Origin: a virus
Taxonomy: Duplodnaviria; Heunggongvirae; Uroviricota; Caudoviricetes
Length of the DNA stretch: 5,214 nucleotides
Virus record (IMG/VR): IMGVR_UViG_2778261572_000007
Reading direction: 5' to 3' (one strand)
Shown here: positions 2,714 through 5,214 of the stretch, piece by piece
Numbering within the stretch: the first letter of the stretch is position 1
Layout of the letters: each line of letters opens with the position of its first letter
Translations under genes and position numbers: made by a program
The notes under the pieces: generated by a model
The model's input: only the letters and a program-made list of their open reading frames with translations
Databases searched by the model: none
Told to the model about the DNA's origin: nothing

Positions 2714-3070
2714 ATGCTCATAGATTTGGTTTTACCTTACCCGCCGACGGTGAACACTTACTGGCGACGCCGTGGCAGCACATATTTTATCTCGGATGAG
2801 GGAAAGCGTTATCGCCGGGCTGTGGCGCTTATTGTTCGCCAGCAGCGGCTGAAATTAAGCCTGTCCGGAAGGCTGGCGATAAAGGTGATTGCAGAGCCAC
2901 CGGATAAGCGTCGTCGCGACCTGGACAATATCCTGAAAGCACCGCTGGATGCGCTGACGCATGCGGGAGTGTTAATGGACGATGAGCAGTTTGATGAAAT
3001 CAATATCGTTCGTGGTCAGCCAGTATCTGGTGGACGTCTGGGGGTGAAGATTTACCCCATAATGCATTAA
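2714..3070 (+). CDS. rusA: Crossover junction endodeoxyribonuclease RusA (Holliday-junction resolvase), 118 aa
   Basis: Size and motifs match RusA: N-terminal LPYPPTVNTYWRRRG and the acidic catalytic region RRRDLDNILKAPLDALTHAGVLMDDEQ. SD AGAGGTG lies upstream of ATG 2714. The position immediately upstream of Q is typical of lambdoid phages that carry rusA instead of ninG/rap. Confidence 0.9.
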   Translation: MLIDLVLPYPPTVNTYWRRRGSTYFISDEGKRYRRAVALIVRQQRLKLSLSGRLAIKVIAEPPDKRRRDLDNILKAPLDALTHAGVLMDDEQFDEINIVRGQPVSGGRLGVKIYPIMH

Positions 3071-3084
3071 GAGCAGGTCAAAAA

Positions 3085-3906
3085 ATGAAACTGGAAGATT
3101 TACCGAAATACTACTCCCCAAAATCACCTTGCCTGACCGATGCATCGGCCTCAACGTCAAAAGATGCGCTGAGTATCACTGATGTGATGGCCGCGCAGGG
3201 CATGACACAGAATCGGGCTGAGATGGGGTTTTCTGCGTTCCTGGGGAAAATGGGCATCAGTATGAATGACAGGGCGCGGGCAACAGAATTACTGGCAGAT
3301 TATGCACTCAGTCGGTGCGATCGTGTGGCGGCGTTGAGAAAACTTCCGGCAGAAATAAAACCGTTAGTGATGCGCATTATGGCTTCGTACGCTTTTGAGG
3401 ATTATGCCCGCAGCGCAGCGAGTAAAAAGCAGTGCCCTTGTTGCTATGGGGAAAAATTTATTGAAAGCGTAGTTTTTACAAACAAGGTCCAGTATCCGGA
3501 TGGTAAGCCGCCGGTATGGGCAAAGTGTACGAAAGGTGTGTATCCGTCTTACTGGGAAGAATGGAAAAAAGTCAGGGAGGTGGTAAAAGTTGCCTGTCCG
3601 GAGTGTGGCGGAAAGGGTGAGGTTTCCACCGCCTGTAAGGATTGCCGTGGGCGTGGTGTCGCCATTCATCGTGAAGAGTCGGTAAAACGTGGTATGCCTG
3701 TTATCAGAGACTGCCGGCGTTGTGGCGGTCGTGGCTATGAAAGACTGCCATCAACGGAGGCATTTAATGCCATATGCAAAGTGACGAGCGCTATCACGCT
3801 TGATACATGGAAAAAATCAGTGAAACGCTTTTACGATACGTTGGTGGTTCGGTTTGACATTGAAGAGGCATGGGCGGAGCGGCAGTTAAAGAGAGTAACG
3901 CGATAG
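3085..3906 (+). CDS. Q: Late-gene antitermination protein Q-like (273 aa) with four CxxCxGxG zinc-finger-type repeats
   Basis: Called mainly on position: directly after rusA and directly before a P_R'-like promoter and tR'-like terminator. Contains CPCCYGEK, CPECGGKG, CKDCRGRG and CRRCGGRG repeats. Assignment to a specific Q family is not verified. Confidence 0.75.
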   Translation: MKLEDLPKYYSPKSPCLTDASASTSKDALSITDVMAAQGMTQNRAEMGFSAFLGKMGISMNDRARATELLADYALSRCDRVAALRKLPAEIKPLVMRIMASYAFEDYARSAASKKQCPCCYGEKFIESVVFTNKVQYPDGKPPVWAKCTKGVYPSYWEEWKKVREVVKVACPECGGKGEVSTACKDCRGRGVAIHREESVKRGMPVIRDCRRCGGRGYERLPSTEAFNAICKVTSAITLDTWKKSVKRFYDTLVVRFDIEEAWAERQLKRVTR

Positions 3907-3911
3907 TGTTG

Positions 3912-3939
3912 TTGATTTTTCCCGAATCTGTGGTAAATT
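3912..3939 (+). promoter_or_regulatory. P_R'-like late promoter (-35 TTGATT, 16-nt spacer, -10 TAAATT with upstream TGg extended -10-like context); a qut-like site is expected to overlap
   Basis: TTGATT at 3912-3917 and TAAATT at 3934-3939, 6-8 nt after the Q stop (3904-3906). Lambda P_R' also uses a TAAATT -10. A small hairpin CGCCC(3941-3945)/GGGCG(3952-3956) plus T-run sits in the predicted initial transcribed region. The predicted start is near 3946. Confidence 0.5.
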
Positions 3940-4115
3940 CGCCCTAACGATGGGCGTTTTATGCCTGACGTTAGAAGAATTTTTACAACTCGCCCTGATG
4001 GGACTTGTGAGACTTCCGGGCAGGAAGCCAGGAGTAGCGATAAGGCGATGGCAAGCCTGCTGCCCCTGTGTAAAAGGCACCTTAATGGTGCCTTTGTCGT
4101 TTTTATCAAAAGATC

Positions 4116-4137
4116 CCCGCCACTGGCGGGTTTTTTT
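4116..4137 (+). terminator. Rho-independent terminator, tR'-like
   Basis: GC stem CCCGCC (4116-4121) / GGCGGG (4125-4130) with a 3-nt loop, followed by seven T (4131-4137). It lies about 190 nt downstream of the predicted P_R' start, matching the lambda P_R'-6S RNA-tR' architecture. Confidence 0.65.
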
Positions 4138-4265
4138 ATGCCTGAAAAGTGGCGCAGGACGTTAAGTGCACTTGCAAAGAGCAGATGGTTGCACAATTAG
4201 CTAAGGCGGCTGATTCTGAATGCATATTATTCCCGCTGGCTGTCGTTACGGATGTGGCAATAAAA

Positions 4266-4342
4266 CCGTCGCTAGCTCATCCGGATAGAGCATCAGCCTT
4301 CGAAGTTGATGGCGCGGGGTTCGAGTCCCCGGTGACGGTCCA
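4266..4342 (+). tRNA. tRNA-Arg, anticodon TCG (UCG), 77 nt with encoded CCA
   Basis: Manual cloverleaf: acceptor CCGTCGC / GTGACGG (7 bp, one G-U); D-arm GCTC-ATCCGGATA-GAGC; anticodon arm TCAGC-CTTCGAA-GTTGA (anticodon positions 34-36 = TCG); variable loop TGGCG; T-arm CGGGG-TTCGAGT-CCCCG; discriminator T then CCA. Confidence 0.75.
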
Positions 4343-4344
4343 TT

Positions 4345-4856
<512 letters not shown>

Positions 4857-4874
4857 ATTTTATAACCCAGAACG

Positions 4875-4898
4875 GGCGTCAGAAATGACGCCTTTTTT
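4875..4898 (+). terminator. Rho-independent terminator (GAAA tetraloop hairpin plus T6)
   Basis: GGCGTCA (4875-4881) - GAAA - TGACGCC (4886-4892), then TTTTTT (4893-4898). It lies 19 nt after the stop of the 4548..4856 ORF and upstream of the Lom-like gene. Confidence 0.7.
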
Positions 4899-4922
4899 AT
4901 TGCAGAAAAGCGAGAGGTAATT

Positions 4923-5214
4923 ATGCGTAAACTTTATGCCGCCATTTTGTCCGCAGCCATTTGTCTGGCCGTATCCGGTGCGCCTGCATGGGCGTCTGAA
5001 CATCAGTCTACGCTGAGCGCGGGGTATCTTCATGCCCGGACGAACGTTCCCGGCAGTGATGATCTGAACGGGATTAACGTGAAATACCGTTATGAGTTTA
5101 CGGACACACTGGGGATGGTGACGTCGTTCAGCTATGCAGGAGACAAGAATCGCCAGATTACCCGTTACAGCGATACCCGCTGGCATGAAGATTCCGTGCG
5201 TAACCGCTGGTTCA
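4923..5214 (+). CDS. Lom/Ail/PagC/OmpX-family outer-membrane protein, 5' part only (continues beyond the window end)
   Basis: ATG 4923 with GAGAGG SD (4912-4917, 5-nt spacer). N-terminal signal peptide [24 protein letters not shown] with an AWA|S cleavage site. The mature N-terminus [10 protein letters not shown]...[28 protein letters not shown] matches the first beta-strands of the Ail/Lom family (the G-x-N-V-K-Y-R-Y-E signature). No stop codon before 5214. It is absent from the ORF track only because it is unterminated. Confidence 0.85.

Follow-up and report, generated by a model that had tools for sequence, protein, structure and literature searches.

The lom gene of bacteriophage λ lies between the tail gene J and the side tail-fibre gene, and the gap between J and lom contains a hairpin-plus-T-run terminator and a GAGAGGT Shine–Dalgarno (SD) sequence. 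λ lom has been reported to be expressed from the repressed prophage (PMC1151598, PMC7067206), its status as a lysogenic-conversion moron is textbook knowledge (PMC7067206, PMC3594210, PMC1151598), and adhesion of λ Lom to buccal epithelial cells has been reported, as cited in PMC3594210 and PMC1151598. Lom belongs to the same superfamily of 8-stranded barrels as Ail of Yersinia, Rck and PagC of Salmonella, and OmpX of E. coli. (A λ-length chain of 206 aa, entitled 'Outer membrane protein lom', is deposited as chain C of PDB entry 9wso; a search for recent Lom literature found no paper describing this structure.)

Two kinds of prophage locus are also close to the one analyzed here. In E. coli lambdoid prophages that encode WP_001230352.1 (for example, those of CFSAN064036 and phage PhiR70_1), lom follows a full-length J of 1132 aa and a whole tail module. 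In decayed Qin-type prophages at ydfJ (for example, those of N2250, EC25 and UK_Dog_Liverpool), genes for a DUF968 protein, RusA, Q and tRNAs stand before a fragment of J and lom, the lysis and morphogenesis genes in between having been lost by internal deletion. In particular, the N2250 locus (L004, 12298–16869) retains a holin fragment fused to a 2-kb J fragment, and then a lom that is cut at about codon 116, together with a tail-fibre fragment; this arrangement, listed in at least seven complete genomes, is an independent deletion of the same kind as the one we describe below.

The stretch of DNA that we analyzed (5,214 nucleotides, referred to here as the window) is identical to the entire contig NLMV01000122.1 (5,214 bp) of the draft assembly GCA_002229415.1. 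The features of its right-hand part are as follows.

3085 to 3906, plus strand: Q antiterminator gene, 273 aa (Pfam PF03589 Antiterm, E = 2.4e-52)
3911 to 3955, plus strand: putative pR'-like late promoter, TTGATT, 16 nt, TAAATT, then AACGATGGG (−10-like pause element), from alignment with λ pR'
4073 to 4137, plus strand: two tandem terminator-like hairpins at the tR' position (4073–4095 and 4116–4130, with a T-run on each)
4266 to 4342, plus strand: intact phage tRNA-Arg (anticodon UCG), from ARAGORN and Rfam RF00005 (53 bits)
4345 to 4410, plus strand: remnant of tRNA-Thr (UGU) lacking the last ~10–11 nt (3' acceptor strand and CCA), from comparison with the related locus L001
4409 to 4410, no strand: putative deletion junction, at a dinucleotide TA common to both parents, from match ends and base-by-base comparison with L001 and L003
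4409 to 4856, plus strand: J', the last ~148 of the 1132 codons of the tail-tip gene J (3' end, encoding the receptor-binding domain), terminated by the stop codon at 4854–4856
4874 to 4900, plus strand: terminator-like hairpin GGGCGTCA-GAAA-TGACGCCT followed by T6, the normal post-J terminator, from a hairpin scan
4912 to 4918, plus strand: SD sequence GAGAGGT of lom, read directly, 4 nt before the ATG
4923 to 5214, plus strand: lom, codons 1–97 of an expected 199, an ORF from ATG 4923 that is open to the last base
4923 to 4994, plus strand: predicted signal peptide of lom, codons 1–24, read from the sequence

An earlier note, made from the letters of the window, had called the last gene an Ail/Lom-family outer-membrane protein gene with a signal peptide, and both assignments were borne out. 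The ORF scores 184 bits against the Pfam family Ail_Lom (PF06316; cut-off 23, E = 3.5e-54) over profile positions 1–97 of 199, and PHROG 108, 'Lom outer membrane protein', is hit at E = 1.5e-46. Indeed, its 97 residues are the N-terminus of WP_001230352.1 (199 aa), with no residue differing, and that full-length homologue scores 399.9 bits against PF06316 over positions 1–199. The homologue in L003 ends in the C-terminal aromatic β-signal ...VGVGYKF; the window reaches lom codon 97. Residues 1–24 have the n/h/c layout of a predicted Sec signal peptide (MRK, a hydrophobic core, and APAWA followed by SE), which is closed by an A-W-A (A-x-A) cleavage motif read from the sequence and aligns with the signal region of λ Lom. 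λ Lom (NP_040601.1) is in the same Pfam family, is the nearest solved structure (PDB 9wso_C, E = 2.2e-49, compared with ~2e-18 for OmpX and Ail), and occupies the same position after J; it shares 46% amino acid identity with the full-length homologue and, unlike it, has an 8-residue insertion in the first loop. When the full-length homologue was scored against NCBIfam equivalog models, the matches to Rck (115 against a cut-off of 258) and OmpX (98 against 176) were weak and below cut-off. Because these scores are far below the Rck and OmpX cut-offs, the protein is not an orthologue of either, and the serum-resistance and invasion phenotypes of such proteins are not simply transferable to it. 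On these sequence comparisons the window protein is a member of the Lom subfamily, and not an orthologue of Ail, Rck, PagC or OmpX, and the gene is an already known, ordinary allele of lom.

The 448 nt that run to the end of the J stop codon (which lies 66 nt before lom) are the 3' end of J, something that the earlier note's entry on lom did not mention. J' matches Pfam PF12421 (Ig_GpJ_C) with E = 1e-37, aligns with positions 1061–1163 of the 1163 of the NCBIfam model lambda_TipJ, and has 99.6% nucleotide identity with the intact J of L003. The hairpin in the J–lom gap (4874–4893, with 8 pairs, a GAAA loop and a T-run after it) is conserved in intact prophages, and the gap as a whole (69 nt) folds at −17.6 kcal/mol (z = −2.98); λ has a hairpin with a T-run at the corresponding place, with a different hairpin sequence. 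The GAGAGGT SD is kept in 15 of the 15 J–lom junctions that we compared, that of λ among them. The earlier note was right that a strong SD stands just after a terminator. However, from the 3' end of J through its stop codon, the hairpin with its T-run and the SD as far as the start of lom, the sequence of the window is the same as in L003, L008, L009, L010 and L015, and the other intact loci compared are 1–2 bases off. Over 4409–5214 (806 bases) the window differs from L003 by three substitutions, all of them synonymous by codon reading, and it is 99.6% identical to the J–lom block of H1–H25 and 99.4% identical to that of phage PhiR70_1, all of which are annotated as J then Lom. WP_001230352.1 loci share with the window the 97 Lom residues, the order of the two genes, and an upstream J 3' end, terminator and SD that are 99.4–99.6% identical in nucleotides, whereas they have the full-length J where the window has the last ~148 J codons alone. 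Since the J'–terminator–lom block is 99.6% identical to the J–lom junction found in intact prophages of E. coli, the place of lom is the canonical one; judged by this collinearity, the SD and terminator before lom are the ordinary J–lom intergenic region and not a new cassette. The claim that lom sits in an atypical position is therefore misleading.

The longest ORF with a start codon inside J' (4548–4856) encodes 102 aa. We set this ORF aside as a candidate for a free receptor-binding domain: it is without a signal peptide, and frameshifts in J yield the same ORF in many genomes. (Homopolymer tracts in the 3' region of J vary among public genomes between G3 and G4 and among C4, C5 and C6, at window positions 4412–4415 and 4472–4476 and, in L007–L016, around 9863–9935; in many records this variation splits J into ORFs of ~1011–1043 aa and 102 aa, and the index of the collection has the 102-aa ORF in 108 blocks. 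The variation could be sequencing error, decay or slippage.)

To the left of J', the Q of the window is in the same Pfam family (PF03589) as λ Q. Just after the Q gene, the putative late promoter aligns with λ pR' over TTGA..GGTAAATT..AACGATGGG, with the pause element at equal spacing, which by homology suggests a late-promoter function for 3911–3955. The tandem hairpins are followed by the intact tRNA-Arg and by a second tRNA-like sequence (4345–4417) that scores 48 bits against Rfam and that ARAGORN does not call in the window. In the relative L001, ARAGORN calls an intact tRNA-Thr of 76 nt, as part of an intact Arg(UCG)–Thr(UGU)–Gly(UCC) trio (L001 21267–21499), and the match of L001 to the window ends at 4410. 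(In this phage tRNA cluster after tR', the window has Arg intact, Thr cut and Gly deleted; in other relatives Ile or Lys replaces Arg.)

The two halves of the window meet at 4409–4410, where the 3'-truncated tRNA-Thr is joined to about codon 985 of the 1132 codons of J, and where the dinucleotide TA constitutes 2 nt of microhomology. With a slash marking the breakpoint, the intact tRNA-Thr parent reads ...GTTCGATTCCGGTA/GTCGGCACCA, the intact J parent reads ...CTGTCAGATTA/AGGGGAAACTGTCAGCC, and the window reads ...GTTCGATTCCGGTA/AGGGGAAACTGTCAGCC. Consistent with such a join, every left-side match, with annotations as Q, tRNA-Arg and tRNA-Thr, stops at 4410 or 4411, whereas, among the matches listed, those of the right side mostly begin at 4409 and none begins earlier; the right-side matches listed by megablast all span 4409–5214, are up to 99.6% identical and are annotated as gpJ and Ail/Lom family protein. 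Z1323CEC0011, which is intact and is the closest relative of the left side (99.9% identity over 3000–4410), has the order tRNA-Arg/Thr/Gly, lysis, terminase, head, tail, J, Lom, with ~20.5 kb between the two breakpoints. This interval contains tRNA-Gly, the genes for holin, lysozyme, spanin, HNH, terminase, portal, protease, capsid, connectors, tail tube, tape measure and tail-tip proteins, and most of J.

Taken together, these comparisons lead us to read the gene as a standard lambdoid-prophage lom of which the window has the 5' half, encoding a Lom-subfamily member of the Ail/Lom 8-stranded β-barrel outer-membrane proteins, in its canonical place directly downstream of J, in a lambdoid Escherichia prophage that has probably lost ~20 kb by one illegitimate-recombination deletion (a reading to which we give a probability of about 0.85). 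A single deletion by illegitimate recombination is the simplest reading of the junction. The deletion, proceeding via the 2-nt TA, would have fused the T-arm of tRNA-Thr, downstream of Q, pR', tR' and tRNA-Arg, to about codon 985 of J, and it would have taken out tRNA-Gly, the genes for holin, endolysin and spanin, those for terminase, head and tail, and 87% of the J gene, presumably leaving the 448-nt J' remnant without a function of its own. The distance of about 1 kb between Q and lom that the earlier note had remarked on is real (1,017 nt from the Q stop codon at 3906 to the lom ATG at 4923); lom would be this close to Q because one ~20-kb deletion runs from inside tRNA-Thr to inside J. 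That note's idea of a rearrangement accordingly survives in one respect, in that a rearrangement appears to have brought lom near Q and the tRNAs, and fails in another, in that lom was not displaced from J. As for the protein, what is known of the family suggests that a Lom precursor would be exported by the Sec pathway and cleaved after AWA (Ala24), that the mature protein would be inserted into the outer membrane in a BAM-dependent manner as a small 8-stranded β-barrel, and that its surface loops might mediate adhesion and perhaps complement resistance.

How the join arose admits of a variant. The right-side J–lom allele differs from that of Z1323CEC0011, with which it shares 92% identity, and that over 4839–5214 only. 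Because the J–lom allele of the window is not that of its closest left-side relative, recombination between two prophages could also have produced the join, and we regard recombination between two different prophages as equally possible as a simple internal deletion. Integrase-mediated recombination at the tRNA 3' end, which is a typical integrase target, was rejected: the event did not restore the 3' end of the tRNA, and the partner site lies inside J and has only TA in common with it.

We did not find the junction elsewhere. A megablast search with 3900–5214 against 5,426 complete E. coli genomes and 50,697 phage records returned no record spanning both halves; an exact 30-mer and a G3/G4-tolerant pattern found no occurrence in GTDB representatives, IMG/VR or JGI metagenomes; the junction is absent from the 26 related loci compared; and exact-protein look-ups with the 102-aa J' ORF and with Q yielded only loci that lack it. 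The decayed prophages at ydfJ differ from the window in having other breakpoints (from inside the holin gene to ~2 kb before the end of J), alleles that are only 92–94% identical, and a lom that is itself truncated.

What lies beyond position 5214 bears on whether lom encodes a protein. Because the window is a whole contig, both of its ends are assembly breaks, and lom is cut by the end of the contig. Provided that the join is real, lom might be disrupted past 5214, whether through a frameshift, an IS element or a second deletion, in the course of a general prophage decay that leaves no protein. The independently deleted Qin-type prophage of N2250, whose lom breaks off at about codon 116 in a fusion with a tail-fibre fragment, sets a precedent, and by analogy decay of lom in the window prophage would be a real possibility. 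Moreover, short-read contigs frequently end at IS elements, and lomR of the K-12 Rac prophage is reportedly interrupted by IS5. However, the 97 codons are intact, the protein that they encode is identical to that of the full-length homologue with the nucleotide differences being synonymous, and the abundance of lom accounts equally well for the contig end: 4,645 of the 5,426 complete E. coli genomes carry the 5' region of the gene (4857–5214), in a median of 2 copies and a maximum of 14, and a repeat of this type is presumably the kind of sequence at which short-read assemblies typically break. On balance we consider a disrupted lom unlikely.

A less probable alternative is that the window is an assembly chimera, in which a short-read assembler or a chimeric library fragment created the join at 4409/4410, so that in reality this lom would belong to an intact prophage, behind a J of full length, and the Q–tRNA region would run into lysis genes. 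In keeping with a chimera, the window is a whole 5.2-kb contig from a draft assembly, its right part is a multi-copy repeat, and the junction, which none of the collections searched contains, is known from a single draft assembly. However, the parents have only TA in common, whereas a de Bruijn or overlap assembler would be expected to need a shared k-mer; the contig is recorded in two samples; and real deletions of the same type occur in closed genomes. A chimeric origin is thus improbable.

The position of lom also raises the question of its transcription. The earlier note had proposed that a promoter be mapped between 4857 and 4922, but a scan of 3850–5214 at a threshold of 9/12 gave no σ70-like site (the pR' homologue scores 8/12 against the consensus and so falls below this threshold). 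By eye, the J–lom gap has poor hexamers only, and its one candidate, TATAAC at 4861–4866, was rejected, being without a −35 element and having the terminator straight after it. Nor did we find a lom promoter in the literature that was accessible. The sole recognisable promoter upstream of lom in the window is the pR' homologue, with three terminators intervening. If the ~20-kb deletion is as we suppose, lom would as a result be the first intact protein-coding gene after pR', tR' and the tRNAs, in the slot of the lysis genes (or of stx in Stx phages). This arrangement raises the possibility that, on induction, Q-modified RNA polymerase reads through the three terminators and strongly expresses the Lom adhesin from a prophage that is unable to lyse, as a domesticated, induction-coupled surface-protein switch; we consider this very unlikely, and mention it as a conjecture. 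The proposal that lom is a candidate lysogenic-conversion moron agrees with the textbook status of λ lom and adds nothing new on this locus, where the upstream hairpin belongs to J and the downstream end of the gene lies beyond the window. That lom was independently acquired or relocated here as a moron cassette carrying an SD and a terminator of its own, beside the Q–tRNA region and away from the tail genes, is hardly tenable: its 1,017-nt distance from Q and the view of λ lom as a moron expressed in lysogens (PMC7067206, PMC3594210) would fit, but 448 nt of J accompany lom in a block collinear with intact J–lom at 99.6%, the border on the left falls within a tRNA, lom is flanked neither by repeats nor by insertion signatures, 3850–5214 is without a promoter-like site, and the GC content of lom (53.8% here, 55.5% at full length) resembles that of J (56.1%).

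The odd-looking position of lom would thus be a prophage deletion scar and not a new cargo arrangement, and the truncation of the gene would be due to the end of the contig. For lom itself, a long-known λ accessory gene with this allele in most E. coli genomes, the finding matters little. The breakpoint, from the T-arm of a phage tRNA to J with 2 nt of microhomology, adds one more example of lambdoid prophage decay that keeps lom, and retention of lom during decay is mildly consistent with selection for keeping accessory outer-membrane genes.

Two other features of the window lie to the left of Q. On the minus strand, 157–982 encodes a RelE-family toxin (PF06296), of 123 aa if translated from ATG 838 or of 171 aa from the ORF-opening ATG 982, which overlaps an HTH antitoxin of 105 aa. 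This toxin–antitoxin pair is also present in L021, L022 and L026, and hokD stands at the corresponding place in L017, L018 and L020; that the RelE/HTH pair and hokD alternate at the same place indicates that toxin–antitoxin cargo is swapped between otherwise similar prophages. Finally, the C-terminal part of the DUF968 protein encoded at 1652–2701 (349 aa) weakly matches an HNH-nuclease-like family (PF16784, E = 9e-5), and the exact sequence of the protein occurs in this one contig only in an index of 153 billion genes.
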